Source: Malacoraja senta (lineage: Eukaryota). Taken from it: 64,000 nt of DNA. This document shows positions 5,282-53,700 of the stretch, piece by piece. Positions within the stretch are counted from its first letter, which is position 1; each line of letters begins with the position of its first letter. Position numbers and translations under genes: made by a program. Below the pieces are notes generated by a model, which saw only the letters and a program-made list of their open reading frames with translations, had not been told where the DNA came from and did no database searches. The stretch covers positions 372,001-436,000 of the forward strand of contig CM075991.1 of the NCBI GenBank assembly GCA_038087875.1, written 5' to 3'.

Positions 5282-6375
5282 TCTATATTACTAAAAGTCT
5301 GATCTTGACCTCTTCCTGTTGTTCTATATATTGATTTTAGAAAAAACGCTGCCACTTACGGCTGTGATTTTTGGCCATCTTACTCAGAGTCCCCCTGAGT
5401 TCAAACCAGAGTTGGTTTGAAAATGCTAAAGTTGCCTTGCCTAATTGAAAAGTTGGGTTGAGAATGCTAAAGTTGCCTTGCCTAATTGAAAAGTTGGTTT
5501 GAGAATGCTAAAGTTGCCTTGCCTAATTGAAAAGCTGGTTTGAGAATGCTAAAGTTGCCTTGCCTAATTGAAAAGTTGATTTGAGAATGCCTTCCCTAAT
5601 TGAAAAGTTGGTTTGAGAATGCTAAAGTTGACTTGCCTAATTGAAAAGTTGGTTTGAGAATGCTAAAGTTGCCTTGCCTATTTGAAAAGATGGTTTGAGA
5701 ATGCAAAAGTTGCCTTGCCTAATTGAAAAGTTGGTTTGCGAATGCTCTGCCCAATTGAAAAGTTGATTTGAGAACTCCTTGCCTAATTGAAAAGTTGGTT
5801 TGAGAATGCTAAAGTTGCCTTGCCTAATTGAAAAGTTGGTTTGAGAATGCCTTGCCTAATTGAAAAGTTGGTTTGAGAATGCTAAAGTTGCCTTGCCTAA
5901 TTAACCTAGGCGGTGCTGGCTCGAAGGGCCGAATGGCCTCCTCCTGCACCTATTTTCTATGTTTCTATTCTAGGGGCTAGTGGAGTCAAGGGATATGGGG
6001 AGAAGGCAGGCACGGGTTATTGATAGGGGATGATCAGCCATGATCACAATGAATGGCGGTGCTGGCTCGAAGGGCCGAATGGCCTCCTCCTGCACCTATT
6101 TTCTATGTTTCTGTTTCTAATTGAAAAGTTGGTTTGAGATTGCTAAAGTTGCCTTGCCTAATTGAAAAGTTGGTTTGAGAATGCTAAAGTTGCCTTGCCG
6201 TCTATATAATTAAATGTCTAATCTTGACCACTTCCTGTTTGCACTGTATATTGATTTTAGGAAAAGCGCTACCACGTACGGCTGTGATATTTGGCCATCT
6301 TACTCAGAGTCCCCCTCCGCTCATCAGATGCCGAGGATTTTTCCCATTGATGAAAAATAAAAGAGTTATTAGTTA
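5282..6375 (+). mobile_element. Helitron-like non-autonomous element: two 5' ends (5282, 6201) bracketing a minisatellite
   Basis: a|TCTATATTACTAAAAGTC and TCTATATAATTAAATGTC starts resemble Helitron 5' termini and begin a ~115-bp direct repeat. No convincing 3' hairpin/CTRR was found. Confidence 0.5.
5405..6199. repeat. 41-bp minisatellite with shorter variants, interrupted by CR1 tail pieces at about 5908-6117
   Basis: Unit gcctaattgaaaagttggtttgagaatgctaaagttgcctt; period 41 (5411 to 5452); no unique spacers. Confidence 0.92.
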
Positions 6376-21007: not shown

Positions 21008-21736
21008 CAGTGAAACCTTGTTATAGTGGACCATAGGGAAGGAGGGGGGGGGGGGGGAATACATGTTGTCTGTTCTTGCCGACTGTCCATTATAACCGTG
21101 AAAGGGATTATCAGTGCATAAGTAGTGGAAACAAAGAAATGTAGATGCTGGTTAATACACAAAGAGGCACAAAGTGCTGGAGTAAATCAATAGGTCAGGC
21201 TGCCTCTCTGGAGAATATGGATAGGTGATGTTTCAAGTTGAGACCCTTCTTTAGAGTCTTGGTCTGGAACCAGGCCTGGAATCCAGGCGAGTTGACAGCC
21301 CTGACCTGCTGATGGCCAGTTGAGAGGTGAGGATCGGCTGAGTTAATGGTCTTGAGTAGCCGGAGTGCAGGCAAGGGTCGGCGGCAGGCATAGCCTGAAA
21401 GTGGCCGAGGAAACGATGTAGGCTGGTAGTGGTGGCAGCAGGTCCAGCCTGGAAGCAACCGTGGAGGCTGTGCAGGTCGGCATTGGCAGCCCGGCCTAGA
21501 AGTGGTCAGGGAGGTGGTGCGGGCCAGGGATGGTGTCAGCAACCTGGCCTAGTATCAGCCGGAGATAATGTCGGCAGCTCGGCCTAGAAGTGGCCAAAGG
21601 TTGCGTCCGCAGTCAGGACAGGAAGTGGCCGGGGAGGTGTGGCGTTGACAGTCTGGCCAGCCGGAGAAGGTCGATAGGTCCGCCCACAATAAAGAGATTC
21701 TGTTATAAAGAGGTTCATAAAATTGACGGTTTACTA
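21008..21736. mobile_element. Decayed Tigger/pogo-like non-autonomous element with a GC-rich interior
   Basis: TA|CAGTGAAACCTTGTTATAG start and ...gacggtttacta|TA end. The host CR1 tail (ataattttgtata-cttctatc) rejoins across it. Confidence 0.55.
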
Positions 21737-24507
21737 TACTTCTATCATCTCCCTTCAAAGTGCGGCGTTCCAGAGAAAACAATCCAAGTGTATCTAACCT
21801 GTAGCTGAAACCCTCTTTAATACAAGCAGCATTTTGATAAACATCCTCTACAGCATCCTCAAAGCTTCCATATCCATCTCTAATGGGACGACCAGAACTG
21901 CACACAATACTCTAAATGAGGCCTAACTTTACAGATCTACATCTGTCTCAATTCATTGCTATCCTGTAAACCTTCCTCATTTATGAGGAGAATGTAGACA
22001 GGCTGAGTTTGTTTTCCCCTGAGAAGAGATGGTTGAGGAACAATCTGATATTATAAAGAGTTACACAGCATGGAAACAGGCCCTTCGACTAAACACATTC
22101 ATGCCGACCAAGTGACAGATCTCCGCTAGTACCATTTGACTGTTTGGCCTATATCCCGCTACACCATTTCTATCCATGTACCTGTCCAAGTATCTTTAAA
22201 TGTTGTTATTGTACCTATACCTCAACTACCTCCTCTGGCAGTTTGTTCCATATATCCACCACCCTGTGAAAATGTTCCCCTCAGGATCAAGTTTAATCTT
22301 TCACTTTAAACCAATGCTCTATCCTGGGTAAAAGTCTCTGTGCATTTATTCCCCTCATGATTTTATACGCCTTTATAAGATCGCACCTCCACGTCCTGCA
22401 CTCCAAGGAATAAAGTCCAAGCCTGCTCACCTTTTCCCTATGACTCAGGCACTTGCGTAAGGGCGACATCCTTGCAAATCTTGGATGCTTCCTCTGGCAG
22501 GGTTGCCAAAATTGTAAATGGTACTCCATATGTGGCTTCACCAACATCTTGTTAAACTGTAACTCAATTTCTATATTTAATAGCCCGATTAATAAAGGTC
22601 AGCATGCGAAAAGTCTTCTTCACTACCCCATCTACCTGTGATGCCAATTTCAGGAAACAATGTTAATGTACCTGTGCTCTTAGATCCCTCTGCTCTACAA
22701 CATTCCCCATGAGATACCATTTACAATAATGATGCCAGGAATGATTAGGTTAACCTATGATGAGCGTTTGTCGGCACTGATCCTGTACTCGCTGGATTTT
22801 AGAAGAATGAGGGGGGACCTCATTGAAACATACAGAATAGTGAAAGGCTTGGATAGATGTGGGGAGGATGTTTCCATTAGTGGAAGAGTCTAGAACTATG
22901 GGCCATAGCCTCAGAATCAAAGGACGTTCTTTTAGGAAGTAGAGGAGAAATTACTTTAGTCAAAGGGTGATGAATCTGTGGAATTCTTTGCCACAGAAGG
23001 CTGTGGAGGCCAAGTCAGTGATCAGGCAGAGATAGATAGATTCTTGATTAGTACAGGTGTTAGAGATTATGGGGAGCAGGAGAATGGGGTTAGGAGGGAG
23101 GGATAGATCAGCCATGATTGAATGGCGTAGACTTGATGGGCCGAATGGCCTAATTCTACTCCTGTCACACGACCTTATTCAATGTGATGGATTGAATTTG
23201 TAAGGTAATATTTGAAATTATGAACAGATATTGATACAATTGTATCACCGTTGCAGGGTGAAGTGGGGTTTTTTTTGGGGTGTGAAGCTGTTTGTACAGA
23301 TTTTACATGGGATTAAATGCCACAGGTCATTCTCCAAGTAGTGTTCTTCCCATTGCGTCTCCTCTGATGGAACTATCTGCTCACATCTGACATACATGAC
23401 TCATTAGCACTATTCTCCAGGTCAGAAGTATGGGATCCAAGCTGCACATCATGCTTTGAGCGAGCAACCAAATTATCCTCCAGAGCAGCAACAAAAACTA
23501 GTCTATCGTCGTCACCACGTTTTAAGCCATACAGACCATAGCTTCTTGAATAGTATGGGAAAGTATTGAATAGTATGGGTGCCAGGGGTTATGGGGAGAG
23601 GGCAGGAGAATGGGGTCAGGAGGGAGATATAGATCAGCCATGATTGAATGGCGGAGTAGACTTGATAGGCCAAATGGCCTACTTCTACTCCTATCACTGA
23701 TGATCTTATGACCTATGACTTCCCCTAACAGGCCAATACTTTCTGTGTGTGTTTTTTCTTTTGCTTTTTGAAATGTGGCTTAAGAAGCGGGACTTAAACA
23801 AAAATGTGTGTTCTATCCTGCAGAAAGAGGAATAGGTCAACCCATCGTTTTCTGGCAGGAAAAGCTAACTGTATACAAAGGCTGTCTAACAACTTTTAAG
23901 TAAAATACTTTGGGGAATCCTTGATATTGCCCACATTGCCATTTTTTTTTAAGTATTCATACACAGGATCTGGGTGTAACTGGCAAATTTGTTGCTTATC
24001 ACTAGTTGCCTTCACATGAATCTCTTTCCTGACGCACAACAATAGGTGACGTTTCGGATCAGGACCCTTATTCAGACTGAACATCATTCAACAACATCCT
24101 CCACAGATGCTGCCTGACCTGCTGAGTTACTCCATAATTGTGTGTGTTTTTTTGGTAAACCAGAAACTGCAATTTTTTGCATCTCTAATTCATAATACAA
24201 AGAAGTTGGACAAAGTGATTGGCCTGTGATAAATGAACAGGCACATTTTCAAGTCAGAAAAGTTTCCAACACTGCTTCAATATTTCTCTATTCTCTGATC
24301 GCCACCAGCACACGATAGCACAAACTCCAAACTGTTCCTTCTTGCAGGAAAATTTGCAGATGGTGCTGTAGTGTGCATAACTCGTACTGGTGGAGCAGAC
24401 AGGCTATGGAAGTATTAAAACAGCATTGGAAATCTGTTGAAGAACACCTTACAGATAGTACACAACGCCAGAACTGCAACACAGGGCAATGGGATTGTTG
24501 AACTTAC

Positions 24508-24710
24508 GTGATGTATTTATTGTAAAGCACGAACGCACTTTCCAGGTTGCCTTCATCCACATACACTGCAGCCATGCGAATCATTTCAACACCAGAGCGG
24601 AAGTACCTCCGCAGAGGGACATCATCGTTGATGTCGACAGAGCTTCCTTTCTTTGTGAGGGCCCGCACACGCTCCACGGGAGATAAACGAACATCGGAGT
24701 GTTCTGGCAT
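24508..24710 (-). CDS. STAMBP: STAMBP (AMSH) first coding exon, 203 coding nt; exon extends to the acceptor at 24728
   Basis: Translates [67 protein letters not shown](T), the AMSH N-terminal/MIT region. Acceptor ctttccctgcAG at 24730-24729, donor GTAAGT at 24507-24502. YNKYIT, KHRDYK and FPKAE across the exons fit STAMBP better than STAMBPL1. Confidence 0.95.
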
Positions 24711-35354: not shown

Positions 35355-37839
35355 CAGAGCAGCCAACGCTCACGCATTGAGCGTGAGACTCACGCATTTC
35401 GCCCAATTCTCACGCTCTCACGCTGATCACAGAATTTCTCACGCTGTCATGAAATATTCTGTGATCAACGAGAATTTCAAAACTAATATCAACTGCATGG
35501 GCCGCGGGTGTTGGAGAGCCGGGGCTGAGGGAGGGATGGAAACAGAAGCAGCGGCGGGGGCAGATGCGGACGTGGAGCTGAGGCTGGCGAGTGTTTGCCA
35601 AGCTGGCGAGTCGGTCGCTGCAGCTCCGGCCATGGAGCAGCCTCATTTTCTCCAACCACCCCCATTTGAAGGCCACTATCTTCCACTACTTCTACCCAGT
35701 GCTTGGTATTTTCCTCCAGCAGCAACTGGTTGTCCTCCAGGATGCACCGAGCTGCAGCCTGGTCCATGCCGGTCACCAGGGCGAATTCGGCACAGAGACT
35801 CTCACGGCAGCGGCGCAACGCTTCCGTCGCCTCTGACGGCCCGGGACTCTTGCATTTCTATTCAACCTGTCCTATCCATGTATCAGTCTTTCTTAAATGT
35901 TGGGATAGTCCCTGCCTCAACTACCTCCTCTGGTTACCCCTCAAAAATACTTCAAACAAAACAAATTGAAATCATACTTCTACAATGCACTAAAACATGA
36001 TTTTAATACATAAAATTTCAAAAAAGGCCCTACCTTGGGAGGGGGGCACCCCCCTCCCACACTCGGTTGCTCCACCCCCAAGGCCAGTGATCACTCAGCC
36101 CACCCACTTTCAAAAACGCTCCGCGGCCCCTGGTTCAGACGGAGAGCACTGCCAGATGTGAGCGGGGAACTGAGGCCAGTTGTCCGTGATGTCTGGATCC
36201 CATGATCAGCGCTTTGTGTTTTGGAGTTGGCTAATGTTATTGATTTGTAATTAGCCTGATTTGTAATTAGTTGACAAAACCTTAATTTATTAATCCGGAA
36301 TATCCAGGGGGATGGGATAAGTGTAATATTAAAATGACATGCAAGGTGTCAGGCTGTCTGTCACAACATACAGCCCCGATAACCTATTATTTCCTTCAGT
36401 TAAATATTGGGAAGGTAGCACTATTGTCATTTGCCACTCAACTATTATGTTTGTTTGCCTCACTGATTATTCATAACCCCCCCCCCCCCCAAATTCCTTT
36501 GACAGGTTGAATAGAAATGACCCCAATCTCGTTGTTTTATTAATTGAACACGTAGATGAACATCCTCAAGGAATGTAATCAGATGGAAACTGATTCAGAT
36601 GTGATGTTTATGAGCTTGTTCAAAGAAGGGGCATATTTTAAAGGAGTGACAGAGATACTTGCAGGGGAATGTGTGAGGAGGTTATTATTTGTCTTTACTT
36701 TTAGCTTGAACCAGGACATCTGAAGATTCAAAGTTTAATATAGTAATTGTGTATCATTGTTGTGTTATGAATATCACAAAAAATATTATGTACTCTCAAG
36801 ATCACATTAAATAGAATATTATTGCTTAAATATATAGTTATTGGACTTTGCATTTCGGCAAAGTCCCAGCTGAGAGGAAGACAGCAAAATACTGAAAATA
36901 TTGGGGGTGAAAATGACTTCAGGACAGTTTGTTAGGAAAATGAAGGAAATGGTAACAGAATATTTATACAGCTGAGTGAGTATAATTTTATGGATAAGAA
37001 ATTATGTTCAACCAATGGATTACTTCTTTGACAAAGTAACTAGCATGTTCGATAACAAGGAAGCCAATGGATGTAGCAAATACAAAATTTGGTCCGTGAA
37101 GTGCCCCATAAAAGATTACCGCATTAGATAAGCACCTGTGGACTTGAACGTAATAGGTTAAGTCCAGGGGGTCAGATATGGGGCTTTATATGTGGGCCAG
37201 TTATATTGTCAGTGCAGAGGGGCTAGGAGCAAGGCCAAGTGTGCATCCAGAGTCAAAGTCTGGAATAGTACTAGGTGTGCAGTCAAAGCTGGCACAATTT
37301 GAGTGTTCAGCACAGGGAACCTAAGCAGGTAAGCAGCTATGATCAGGGTAGAATAGGGTGTAAGGCTGGACTCAGGGTCAGGAATGAGAGAATGTATGCA
37401 ACTGGAGTCAGGGTCAGTAGTACCAATTGTGCAGTGAGACCCAGGTTGGCCAAGTGCTTGATTATAATCTGACTTCCATACATGAATACACTGAGATCAT
37501 CCATGTGCTGCACCTGTTGATCAGAAGTCTGAAGAAGGGTTTCAGCCCGAAACGTTGCCTATTTCCTTCGCTCCATAGATGCTGCTGCACCCGCTGAGTT
37601 TCTCCAGCATTTTTGTGTACCTGTTGATCAGAGCCTGGCTCTACTATGGAATGTAATTTAGATCAACCTTATTCATAGCTAATCCAATTTAAAGCATAAA
37701 TATTGCATTTAAGAAAAGACTCGCAACAGTATGCACCAGATTGCACAATTTCAAGCTGAAAAATGCAAAAGCTCCATACCAATGGGAGGGGGGACTCGGG
37801 CTTGGTCTCACTCATTTCCCAACTCTCACCCAATGTTGG
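35355..37839 (+). mobile_element. Second, more decayed copy of the same TIR family with different cargo
   Basis: Left end cagagcagccaac followed by the same ctcacgc subterminal repeats. Right subterminal block 37640-37839 matches 51400-51662. It splits a Penelope-derived tail that rejoins across the insertion (compare 44320-44560). Confidence 0.75.
37526..37618 (+). mobile_element. About 93-bp Penelope pLTR-derived mini-element with hammerhead motif
   Basis: Nearly identical to 59051-59146. 14-bp TSD acctgttgatcaga at 37512-37525 and 37619-37632. Confidence 0.85.
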
Positions 37840-38487
37840 GGGGAGGGGCACAGGAAAGAGGAGTAGGGGGGGGGGGGCATGTTAGTTAAAGCTGGAGAAT
37901 TCAATGCTCATACCCTCTGGTTGTAAGTTACCCACACAGAACATGAGGTGTGCTGTTCCTCCAGTTTGTGTGGCCTCACTCAGCCCGGATCAGAAAGGTT
38001 AGTATGGGAATAGGAATGGGAAGGTTAGCAACCGGGAGATCCAACAGACCGAGCGCCCTGAACAAAAATGGCATTTACAAAGTAAATAAGGCAAACACAA
38101 TTGTGGTCTTTAACAATATAGGCATACCGTATATAAACAAGGAAGTCGTGCTGAATCTTTAGAAATGACTGGCCCTGCCTCAGCTGGAGTTTGGTGTTGA
38201 ATCTTAGCCACCCGGCTCAACGTGGAGAGGATGTGATGGTGGGGCTGAGGTATTTGCTGTGAAAGAGGAGATAGTGGGAGCGCGGGGCGCCGGGCGGTGA
38301 CACAGGGGACCCGGAACGGGACGACCAGGTACGGGGAGGAGCAGCCGCGGGGCGGGGTTGGCCAGTCACCGACACAAAGTGAACGCGAGCGTGCAATGAC
38401 TGCTGCTCGGACCCCCGGGGGCAGGGAGCGGCGCCCGCAGAGACAGCACTACTACAACGGGCCGAACGGCCTCCGCTCTTCACTCAC

Positions 38488-49310: not shown

Positions 49311-50029
49311 GGAGGAAATACAGTGAAGATCAACAAACCAATTTGTGGAATGACAGCTTTACCACAAGGAGAGATCACGTACGTTAGTGTCCATTTTTTC
49401 TAAAGTTTCTTTTTAGTTGCTTTCTCCATATAAGGGGAGCTCAGCTGGAAGCTACTGTCTCACAGCGCAAGAGGCCCGGGTTTGATCCTAACCTCCAGTG
49501 CTGCCTGTGTGGAATTTGCACGTTTTCTCCCACATTCCAAGGTCATGCAAGTTTGTAGGTGAATTAGTCTCGGTAGGTTGCCCTTGTGTGCAGGAGTGGA
49601 TGAGAAAGTGGGATAACATAGAACTAGTGTGTTTGGGTGATGGATGTTAGTGTGCACCCAGGGCTGCCAACTCTCACGCTTTGAGCGTGAGAATCACGCC
49701 CTCAGGCAAACTCTCACGCCCTCACCGCTGATCAGAAATTTCTCACGCTCTGTGGTGAGAAATTCTGTGATCAACGAAAATTTAAAAACTCAGATAAACT
49801 GCATGGTCCGCGGGTGTTGGAGAGCCGGGGCTGCGGGAGGGATGGAAGCAGCGGGCGGATACAGATGCGGGGAGCCGGTGCTGGTGAGTGTTTGCGGGGC
49901 TGGTGAGTAGCTCGCTGCAGCTCCGACCATGGAGCAGCCTCAGTGCGAGAGTCCCGGGCCGTCGGAGGCGTCGGAAGCATTGCCCCGCTGCCGTGAGAGT
50001 CTCTGTGCCGAAGGGACAGACTCTCAAAG

Positions 50030-50417
50030 GGAGGTGGAGAGAGAGAGAGGGGAAGGAGACAGGGGGGAGAGAGAGGGGAGAGACAGAGGGGGGGTGAATG
50101 GAGTGAGAGAAGAGGGAGAGGGGGGGAGAGAGAGGGATTAGAGGGAAGAGAGAGGGGGTGGAGAGGGTAGGAGAGAATGGGAGAGAGGGGTGGTAAAAGA
50201 GAGAGGGGGAGAGGGAGAGGGGGAAAGAGAGATGGGGGGCAAAGAGAAAGAGGAGATAGAGACAGGAGAAAGAGAGGGGAAAGAGAGAGGGGAAAGAGAG
50301 CAAGGGGGAGAGTGAGGTGGGTGGGAGAAATGGGGGAGCGAGAGAGGAGAGAGAGAGGGGGGAGAGAGAGAGGGGGAGAGAGAGGGAGGGGGAGAGAGAG
50401 GGAGGGGGAGAGAGAGG
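50030..50417. repeat. Polypurine (GA-rich) low-complexity tract
   Basis: About 390 bp of almost pure G/A between the two left arms of the TIR element. Confidence 0.95.
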
Positions 50418-50641
50418 CAGGGCTGCCAACTCCCATGCATTTCGCCAAATTCTCACGCTGATCACAAATTTCTCTTGCTCGGTGGTGAGAAATTCTGTGA
50501 TCAAAGAAAATTTCAAAACTCATATCAACTGCATGGGCCATGGGTGTTGGAAGCAGAAGCAGCGACGGGGACAGATGCGGATGGGGAGCGGGGCTGGCGA
50601 GTGTTTGCCGGGCTGGCGAGTCGCTCACTGCAGCTCCGGCC

Positions 50642-50778
50642 ATGGAGCAGTCTCAGTGCAAGGCGTTGGAAGCGTTGCGCCGCTGCCGTGAGAGTCTCTG
50701 TGCCAAATTCGCCCAGGCATGGATCAGGCTGAGGCTCGGTGAATCCTGGAGGACAACCAGTGGCTGCTGGAAGTAAGT
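50642..50778 (+). pseudogene. Captured TDP2-like exon 1 fragment (UBA-like domain) with splice donor; related pieces at 49929-50012 and 35536-35854
   Basis: The three copies give a consensus MEQPQCESPGPSEASEALRRCRESLCAEFALVTGMDQAAARCILEDNQWLLE followed by GTAAGT (50773-50778). The pattern LCxEFAxVxxxDxAxAxCxLxxNxWxxE matches the vertebrate TDP2 N-terminus as recalled. Every copy is truncated, deleted or inverted. Confidence 0.75.
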
Positions 50779-53700
50779 ACCAAGCACTGGGTAGAAACGG
50801 TGGAAGATAGTGGACGTCAAATGGGGGTGATTGGAGAAAGCATCCTGCTTGCCTGCTAGATTTTCACTTACTGTAACTGCAGGAAAAATGTTCCCAATGT
50901 TGGGGGAGTTCAGAACCAGGGGTCACAGTTTAAGAATAACGGGGGGGGGGGGGGGGGGGCAGTTAGGACTGAGATGAGGACAAACTTTCTTCACACAGAG
51001 AGTTGTGAATATGCGGAATTCTCTGCCACAGAAGGCAGTGCAGGCCAATTCACTGGATGTTTTCAAGAGAGAGTTACATTTAGTTCTTGGGGCTAACGAA
51101 ATCAAGGGATATGGGGAAAAAACAGGAAAGAGGTACAGATTTTAGATGAATAGCCATGATCATATTGAATGGCAGTGCTGGCTCGAAGGGCTGATGGCCT
51201 ATTCCTGCACCTATTTTCTATGTTTCTAGGCTTGAGTATATGGCAATAAACTCGATCACTTGATTTTGAAGCATTCATGCATGGTGGAGGTATAATGTAG
51301 TCATAGAGTGATACAGTGTGAAAACAGGCCTTCGGCACAACTTGCCCACACCCGCCAACATGTCCCAGCTACCCTACCTGCTGGGGGGAATTCCCTACCA
51401 TACTGTGGAATGTAATTAGGAATGTAATTTACTCTAACCTTATTCATAGCTATATATTTAAAGCATATATATTGCATTCAAGTGTAGGTTAAAAGACTCG
51501 CTACAGTATGCACCATATTGCACAATTTCAAGCTGAAAAATGCAAAAGTTCCGTACTAATGGGAGGGGGACACCCTCCTCCCACCCCCCCCCCCCCAGTC
51601 GCCATGCTCCCTCGGGCTTGGTCTCTCGCAATTTCTCACTCCCAACTCTCACCCAATGTTGGCAGCCCTGTGCACCTGATGGGCCGAAGGGCCTGTTTCC
51701 ACGCTGTTTCTTTCCATCAATAAATTTTGAAAAATGCGTGATGAATCCACTTAAGCAAAACAAAAAAAGAGCTCAACCTGTAAGGAGAAAGCTTCCGGGC
51801 TCCGTCCAGAATTAGTGTAAAAATATTCTTATTTAGAACTGGACTGAGAGATTATACAGAGTGGCGAATCTCTGGAATATTCTAAGGCAGAGGGTTGTGG
51901 AGGCTCGGTCACTGACTGCACTCAAAACAGATTCGGAACATCAGGGCAATAAAGGGGGACATGGCAGGAAAGTGTGGGTTAGATCAGCAGTGATCACTTT
52001 GAATGGCAAAGTGGGCCTGACTGACCTGCTCTGTATTTGTACATACCATCCTGGTAAAGATCTATCATCCCCACCAACTCATGTTCATTACAAACCAGCA
52101 GAAAGGCTTCAACTACCAAGTCTCTTGAATGGAAGCCGATGGGGGGCAAACAATAATCTGCAAGCATGTAGTCAGCTGTGATGAAGGTAGACACAAAATG
52201 CCGGAGTAACTGAGGGGACAGGCAGTATCTCTGGGGAGAAGGAATGGGTGACATAGAAACATAGAAAATAGGTGCAGCAGGTGGCCTTTTGGCCCTTCAA
52301 GCCTGCACCACCATTCATTGTGATCATGGCTGATCATCCACAATCAGTACCCCGTTCCTGTCTTCTCCCCATATCCCTTGATTCCACAAGCCCCTGTAGC
52401 TCTATCTAACTCTCTTTTAAATTCATCCATTGAATTGGCCTCTACTGCCGTCTGTGGCAGAGAATTCCACAAATTCACAACTCTCTGGGTGAAAAAGTTT
52501 TATCTCATCTCAGTTCTTAGACTGTGGTCCCTGGTTCTGGATGCCTCCATCATTGGGCAATTTTTTCCTGCATCCAGCTTGTCCAGTCCTTTTATAATTT
52601 TATACGTTTCTATTAGATATCCTCTCATCCTTCTAAGTTCCAGTGAATACAAGCCCAGTCTTTCCAATCTTTCCTCATATGACAGTCCCGCCATCCCGAG
52701 GATTAACCTCGTGAACCTACGCTGCACTGCCTCAATAGCAAGGATGTCCTTCCTCAAATTAGGAGACCAAAACCGCACACAATACTCCAGATGTGGTCTC
52801 ACCAGGGCCTGTGCAACGGCAGAAGGACCTCTTTACTTCTATACTCAAATCCTCTTGTTATGAAGGCCAACATGCCATGTTATGAAGGCCAAACGTTGCC
52901 TATTTCCTTTGCTACACAGATGCTGCCTCACCCGCTGAGTTTCTCCAGCATTTTTATCTACATGCCATTCGCTTTCTTCACTGCCTGCTGTACCTGCATG
53001 TTTACTTTCAGTGACTCGTGTATAAGGACACCCAGGTCTCATTGCACTTCCCTTTTTCCTAATCTGGCACTATTGAGATAATAATCTGCTTCCTTGCTCT
53101 TGCTGCCTAAATGGATAACCTCACATTTATCTACATTATACTGCATCTGCCACGCATTTGCCCACTCACTCAACCTGTCCAAGTCACCCTGCAACCTCCT
53201 TGCATCCTCTTCGCAGTTCACTGCCACCCAGCTTTGTGCCATCTGCAAATTTGTTAGTGTTACATCTAAATCATTAATATATATTGTAAATAGTTGCGGC
53301 CCCAGCACCGAGAGTTGCGGCACTCCATTCGCCTCTGCCTGATATTCTGACAGGGATCCGTTTATTCCTACTCTTTGTTTCTCTATCCATGTCAATATCC
53401 TACCCCCAATACCATGTGCTCTAATCTTGCCCCCTAATCTCCTGTGTGGGACCTTATCAAAGGCATTCTGAAAGTCCAGATACACTACATCCACTGGCTC
53501 TCCTTCATCCTTTTTACTTGTCACATTCTCAAAAAATTCCAGAAGATTAGTCAAGTACAATATCCCCTTCATAAATTCATGCTGATTTGGACCAATTCAT
53601 TACTGCTGTCCAATGCGCTGTTATTAATTCTTTAATAATTTACTCCAGCATCTTCCCCACCACCGATGTCAGACTAACTGGTCTGTAATTCCGTTTACTC

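Follow-up and report, generated by a model that had tools for sequence, protein, structure and literature searches.

At positions 49659–51670 of a 64,000-nucleotide stretch of the skate Malacoraja senta (GenBank assembly GCA_038087875.1, contig CM075991.1, positions 372,001 to 436,000 of the forward strand; hereafter, the window) lies a member of a transposon family that carries the start of the host gene TDP2. It is proposed, with a probability of roughly 0.78, that this family is a non-autonomous transposon whose piece of genomic TDP2 was captured once by one terminal inverted repeat (TIR) element, X, was handed over to a second, Y, with CAGGGCTGCCAAC ends, and is now a passive passenger. 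The features that are new are the very high copy number and the hand-over between two TIR families; otherwise, this is a Pack-TIR capture in a vertebrate.

Architecture of the window element and source of its cargo

The window element ends in perfect 13-bp TIRs (49659–49671 and 51658–51670), flanked by a 6-bp target-site duplication (TSD), TGCACC, at 49653–49658 and 51671–51676. The target is a short interspersed element (SINE), which regains its normal length when the element and one TSD are excised. TIRs, duplication and SINE target had all been described correctly in the original prediction, which was made from the window sequence alone; its alternative of 12-bp TIRs with an 8-bp TSD is not supported, since TSDs of 6 or 7 bp are found in 18 of the 24 full-length copies. 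Copies of the TIR with no mismatch number three in the window, the third at 50418, and matches with at most two mismatches number eight, against 1.66 expected; a candidate match at 21291 is unrelated.

The element is a composite with two left ends, a GA-rich tract between them and a CpG-rich block after each, all on the plus strand. The outer left end of Y (49659–49801) comprises the TIR and subterminal repeats rich in CTCACGC; it matches L181, a Y copy free of cargo, and is followed by 12 bp that correspond to the left TIR of X (49802–49813). A first, truncated TDP2 copy (49814–50012) aligns with both host genes and contains 5′ flank, an upstream ATG at 49842 and the start ATG at 49929; its exon breaks off at 50012, within UBA helix 1. 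Beyond a low-complexity GA-rich spacer whose length differs among copies (50013–50417), the inner left end of Y (50418–50531) has a perfect TIR, which the GA tract adjoins in sister copies too, and lacks a TSD of its own. A second 12-bp X remnant (50532–50543) precedes the TDP2 5′ region and exon 1 (50544–50772), and intron 1 extends from the donor GTAAGT at 50773 through unique intron sequence, a CR1 fragment (50878–51228) and a SINE fragment (about 51298–51382). The right end of Y (51401–51670) completes the element, from which the right end of X and the interior of Y are missing.

Two distances given earlier require revision. The ATG of ggccATGG, at 50642, lies 224 bp inside the inner TIR of this double-ended structure, not 100–150 bp inside the left end, and the intron-like sequence after the donor measures about 610 bp (50773–51382) instead of about 60, including the CR1 and SINE fragments found in TDP2 intron 1. 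The main exon of the window copy is broken, as 7 nt are deleted after 50715 and TGA occupies 50740–50742; the peptide quoted before is thus valid as a reading of the family, not of this copy. In this subfamily, exon 1 is 42 nt shorter than in the host.

The intact exon of sister copy L004 (46 residues) identifies the cargo, as had been suspected. Its translation matches the TDP2 UBA chain 6q00_B (E 3e-4; the better of two PDB matches) up to the end of the exon, passes the cut-off of Pfam UBA_4 (E 2e-5) at profile positions 2–30 of 43, and matches skate TDP2 at 74–76%; two other copies tested against UBA_4 fell below the cut-off. Searching with skate TDP2 revealed two tandem host genes of seven exons each on the minus strand (G000:C19:4603402-4712516; L041-L054). 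All seven exons of the second gene are recognisable, and its catalytic part is more diverged. In the host, exon 1 is followed by a phase-0 donor, GTAGGT, and the first residues of exon 2 are RALNS.

The window matches the host from about 50545 to 51382, and the host exon 1/intron 1 junction falls exactly at 50772/50773, as predicted. Since the cargo is collinear with TDP2 intron 1, with the CR1 and SINE pieces in the same order, it was captured from genomic DNA, in agreement with the original prediction. It contains none of the insertions private to either host paralog. The last residue of the exon is E in all elements, as in other cartilaginous fish, and D in both host genes.

Derivation of the host exon from the transposon, or an origin of the copies as retrocopies or segmental duplications, would likewise account for the sequence identity, and for nothing more. 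Conservation of exon 1 extends to sharks, rays and the PDB chain, and in the host no X or Y ends flank it; the copies retain the intron and have TSDs of their own. These explanations are refuted.

Other observations concern the same genes. In element copy L036 (L036:1501-1662), a 6-residue deletion and an L-to-Q change are shared with TDP2 exon 1 of Leucoraja and Amblyraja (proteins P0004 and P0006); the TDP2 genes of this genome and of more distant rays have a longer exon 1 without the Q, and Rhinoraja has the deletion without the Q. Mutations that recurred independently, or conversion between the element and the gene, might be responsible. Between the TDP2 paralogs lies a broken hAT transposase (G000:C19:4661900-4663900) without X or Y ends. 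A Y element with a 6-bp TSD, three stacked Y left ends and a CpG-rich cargo occupies a TDP2 intron (L042:7337-L043:1275; G000:C19:4687337-4691275); such stacking of left ends is recurrent in the Y family.

Two carriers and the proposed order of events

In older copies, the cargo is surrounded by X, which has CATGGGCCGCGGA at its left end and TCCGCGGCCCCTG at its right. X also occurs free, typically at 1.83–1.93 kb, with about 1.13–1.2 kb of TDP2 sequence between its own ends. The TDP2 sequence in free X starts about 230 bp before the annotated ATG and reaches about 1.1 kb into host intron 1; it corresponds to host segment C19:4712749-4711238. Among 15 free copies with both ends, the 5-bp TSD is exact in seven (in two of these only if the right end is read one base longer), has one mismatch in six and is absent from two.

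Y is a non-autonomous carrier of about 2.3 kb, within which X(TDP2) occupies one fixed site, shortened to 1.2–1.4 kb. Y without X, represented by L136/L181, measures about 2.3 kb and has GTTCA only once at the position where X is inserted in other copies; GTTCA lies to the left of X in L139 and L142 and to its right in most other copies. TSDs of Y were tabulated for 24 copies, which remained of 36 after 12 were set aside because the TIR taken as their left one belonged to the inner end or fell within a simple repeat (two were read by hand): nine are of 6 bp, nine of 7 bp, two of 8 bp and one of 5 bp, and three copies have none. Distinct TSDs, present in 21 of 24 Y copies and 13 of 15 X copies, indicate independent transposition. 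The second insertion noted earlier within the window, at 35355–37840 on the plus strand, is an older Y(X-TDP2) copy of intermediate form: its exon segment (35647–35854) is inverted and its donor lost, the right end of X is present at 36132, the Y interior is complete and the right TIR is truncated.

These structures bear on the earlier proposal that the CAGGGCTGCCAAC element took TDP2 directly and spreads a working UBA start module. Only Y's TIRs are complete in the window copy, and most young copies have an open exon and a GT donor, as that proposal would expect. X remnants nevertheless stand at both cargo starts, the nested element X with its 5-bp TSD holds the same cargo alone, and this free form has more host sequence and a fuller exon. 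Furthermore, the exon covers only positions 2–30 of 43, without helix 3 and its ubiquitin-binding residue. Direct capture is very improbable and largely refuted, and the CAGGGCTGCCAAC ends are probably not those of the captor.

A tree was built from 77 rows, leaving out L005, L037, L110 and copies without the ATG motif. The host pair forms one clade (100/99), attached with weak support beside the free-X copies with the fullest exon. The young composite copies form another (97/89), with a mean difference of 3.4%, compared with 9.8% and 12.4% in the older groups. Copies differ from the host by 10–12%, the host paralogs from each other by 4.5% and young copies among themselves by 3.4%; this fits a single capture before the tandem TDP2 duplication, or later conversion between the paralogs.

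The history favoured here would begin with X, which, through gap repair or template switching, would have taken up exon 1 of TDP2 together with its 5′ flank and part of intron 1, presumably before the host gene was duplicated in tandem. X(TDP2) would then have inserted into Y in what appears to have been one event, the fixed site and the X-free Y being observed. Deletion from the left TIR of X into the TDP2 flank, loss of the right end of X and of the Y interior, and doubling of the left end would have led to the young composite; the structures are seen, and their order is the likely one. Transposase supplied in trans would have moved each form, and the exon would have decayed after insertion with no selection on its protein.

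Cargo-free Y offers an observation of its own: at the X insertion site, L136:1660-1820 has a CpG-rich segment with two ATGs, which could represent the 5′ end of a transposase or stem from a previous capture. At L184:3539-4047 (oriented) lies an element of 509 bp whose ends, TAGGGTTGCCAAC, are related and whose 8-bp TSD is exact.

Passenger or functional cargo

It had also been suggested that the family disperses a domain of ubiquitin/SUMO-binding type. The captured exon encodes UBA_4 positions 2–30 and ends two residues past the loop tryptophan; helices 3 and 4, with the critical helix-3 aromatic residue, are encoded by exon 2, so that what is dispersed falls short of a UBA module. According to excerpts of PMC5137425, that residue is required for ubiquitin binding by the TDP2 UBA domain, and the domain does not bind SUMO; the ubiquitin part of the description stands and the SUMO part does not.

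Coding decay points in the same direction. The ratio of nonsynonymous to synonymous substitution rates (dN/dS), reckoned against the per-column majority with flank-derived rates, is 0.79, 0.89 and 1.43 in subfamilies of 18, 27 and 30 copies, none different from 1. Fifteen of 18 core indels shift the frame, and the interval from ATG to GT is intact in 5 of 18 and 13 of 27 copies of the older groups. Selection on in-frame N-terminal deletions (69 of 77 copies) was considered and rejected, as a 9-nt repeat accounts for them. No chimeric protein was found among 4 candidates, 65 candidates or 1.84 billion representatives. On this sequence evidence, the copies are likely decaying passengers and not working exons. 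In four putative RNA runs, two of them probably DNA, the listed contig pieces cross the donor unspliced, with no GT..AG joint among them, and one 208-nt contig departs from the stretch at 50768; these pieces favour neither reading.

A different view of the same history holds that the CpG-island cargo is active, keeping elements open or transcribed in the germ line and thereby aiding amplification, with some copies serving as alternative promoters or first exons. Its appeal lies partly in the other cargoes. L222, one of eight X copies examined, carries a different CpG-rich, CCAAT-containing fragment with the same left junction and a 5-bp TSD, and a Y subfamily with yet another CpG-rich fragment yielded 680 first-look candidates; the source gene of this second Y cargo was looked for and not found. 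These other cargoes are presumably of host origin. Three different cargoes or interiors of X and Y carriers are CpG-rich (observed/expected 0.75–0.93), CpGs decay less in the TDP2 cargo than in the rest of the element, and the promoter-side part of the TDP2 cargo is retained, and doubled, through every deletion. Excerpts of PMC6839031 describe plant elements carrying gene fragments as less methylated, and excerpts of PMC5861414 describe a preference of rice Pack-MULEs for GC-rich sequence.

Set against this, cargo CpGs mutate about four times faster than other C/G positions, with transitions at 40 of 959 (4.2%) and 36 of 3235 (1.1%), respectively. Open chromatin might bias capture without conferring any later benefit, and the search for chimeric proteins was negative. 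The window copy lies antisense to STAMBP, whose first coding exon (24507–24710, minus strand) is 25 kb away and gave the only Pfam match among 150 of the 159 open reading frames of the window. Promoter or anti-silencing roles for the cargo may exist, and an active cargo is nonetheless considered improbable. Slightly more doubtful still is a general cargo relay, in which skate TIR transposons would capture CpG-island promoters with first exons and pass them between unrelated families by nesting, such cargoes being favoured for germ-line openness; the 1,000–2,000 TDP2 starts would then provide ready units of promoter plus donor, give rise to small RNAs that target TDP2 and perhaps serve as templates for conversion of the host exon.

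Several observations weigh against capture by X, transfer to Y and passive carriage. GTTCA stands on both sides of X in no single copy, the duplication being assembled from different copies, and the tree mixes free X with Y(X) (13 and 12 changes), with a bootstrap that had not converged. None of the X copies examined lacked cargo, so that the capture junctions are placed solely by where the sequence diverges from the host. Among 30 young copies, the interval from ATG to GT is in frame in 24 and the donor is GTAAGT, nearer the usual donor consensus, in 28. With all subfamilies on one yardstick, the pooled dN/dS is 0.74 (p 0.008), a value discounted because fixed subfamily differences are counted many times. 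Elsewhere in the element, CpG decay in 24 young copies reaches 84 of 1181 (7.1%), above the 4.2% of the cargo, in a comparison biased by the choice of copies for likeness in the cargo region.

Copy number, classification and relation to known systems

Exact matches to a 28-nt exon/donor pattern occur at 493 places and to the 23-nt right end of Y at 1,013 places, with none for reversed controls. Since the exon/donor pattern matches 40 of 77 sampled copies, about 950 copies are expected; as well-kept copies are over-represented in the sample, this estimate is on the low side. The first-look counts of 2,019 and 1,701 are candidates and not copy numbers. The high copy number predicted is therefore confirmed, with at least 493 exact junctions and likely 1,000–2,000 TDP2-carrying copies. 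The family is probably shared among species, because 58–60% of sampled words are present in six runs from five organisms (one run may be the source sample) and because proteins P0002, P0003 and P0005 read from exon into intron, as the element does. Protein P0010 is a repetitive chance match.

Identity with 8-bp hAT elements, entertained earlier, is not supported. The 8-bp TSD of canonical hAT elements occurs in two of 24 Y copies, most having 6–7 bp, and a search of 50 of the 150 listed PF05699 (hAT) places, each with only 1.2–1.5 kb of flank, found no transposase enclosed by ends of X or Y. These hAT loci lack X and Y ends except for one opposite-strand Y copy near L248. Likewise, none was found within X or Y ends at 20 of 150 listed P-type places (eight regions extended), and inspection by eye revealed no transposase in the open reading frames of cargo-free Y. 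Excerpts of PMC12730594 define the groups hAT5 and hAT6 by 5- and 6-bp TSDs. X resembles hAT5 in its 5-bp TSD and short CA..TG TIRs, an assignment by TSD alone, and the CMCT clade also contains 5-bp TSDs with CA..TG ends. Y comes near hAT6 in its 6–7-bp TSDs and short CA..TG TIRs; its mixed 6-, 7- and 8-bp TSDs match no single group cleanly, and no transposase is linked to X or Y.

As in Pack-TIR elements, host sequence with its intron kept lies between TIR-element ends, the parental locus is unflanked and TSDs are distinct. The animal survey of Tan et al. 2021 (PMC8277862), as excerpted, reports 370 cases in 100 animals, four of them multicopy and none in elephant shark; among them is a frog 5′ untranslated region captured by a hAT element and present in three copies. 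In those elements, too, a piece of the host genome lies between the TIRs and has been multiplied by transposition into sites with distinct TSDs. They differ in that few are multicopy: the TDP2 family, with at least 493 copies, is at least 100 times larger than the three-copy frog example. The word 'nested' is absent from the main text of the survey and TDP2 is not named in its 12 text supplements; its unique-top-hit filter would be inclined to overlook a family such as the TDP2 carrier. Plant Pack-MULEs (PMC5861414) and GingerRoot (PMC6839031), again from excerpts, share genomic capture of GC-rich gene pieces and several cargoes per carrier family. Their ends differ from those of X and Y (13-bp TIRs with TSDs of 5 or 6–7 bp), and here one cargo has reached very high copy in a vertebrate host. 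No description of the family was found in the literature; Repbase and Dfam lay outside the search and may list it under a repeat name.

Bat Helitrons carry promoters and first exons and are a vertebrate case of high-copy dispersal of a gene 5′ end. They move by rolling-circle transposition without TIRs or TSDs, and no hand-over between two TIR families is known for them.

The skate genome preserves every stage, namely capture, nesting into a second family, trimming and re-amplification, and it reveals a way in which host sequence can persist beyond the transposon family that captured it. Together, cargo-bearing and cargo-free carriers offer a vertebrate test of whether a captured CpG island helps escape from silencing. 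A practical hazard in skates is that near-copies of TDP2 exon 1, numbering about 1,000 or more, can interfere with annotation, read mapping and the design of guides and primers.

Two minor observations complete the analysis. A young P-superfamily family (L075-L076; G000:C1:237358684-237366580) of about 7.9 kb, with at least 150 matches, has TIRs starting CAAAGATACTAGAGG, an 8-bp TSD, THAP-like exons and a 769-residue frame, and its first intron contains a stray Y end with GA tract. Despite that stray end, the abundant P family was rejected as the partner of Y, its TIRs being different and its TSD being 8 bp. Elsewhere in the window, a tandem array with a 41-bp period occupies 5351–6263.

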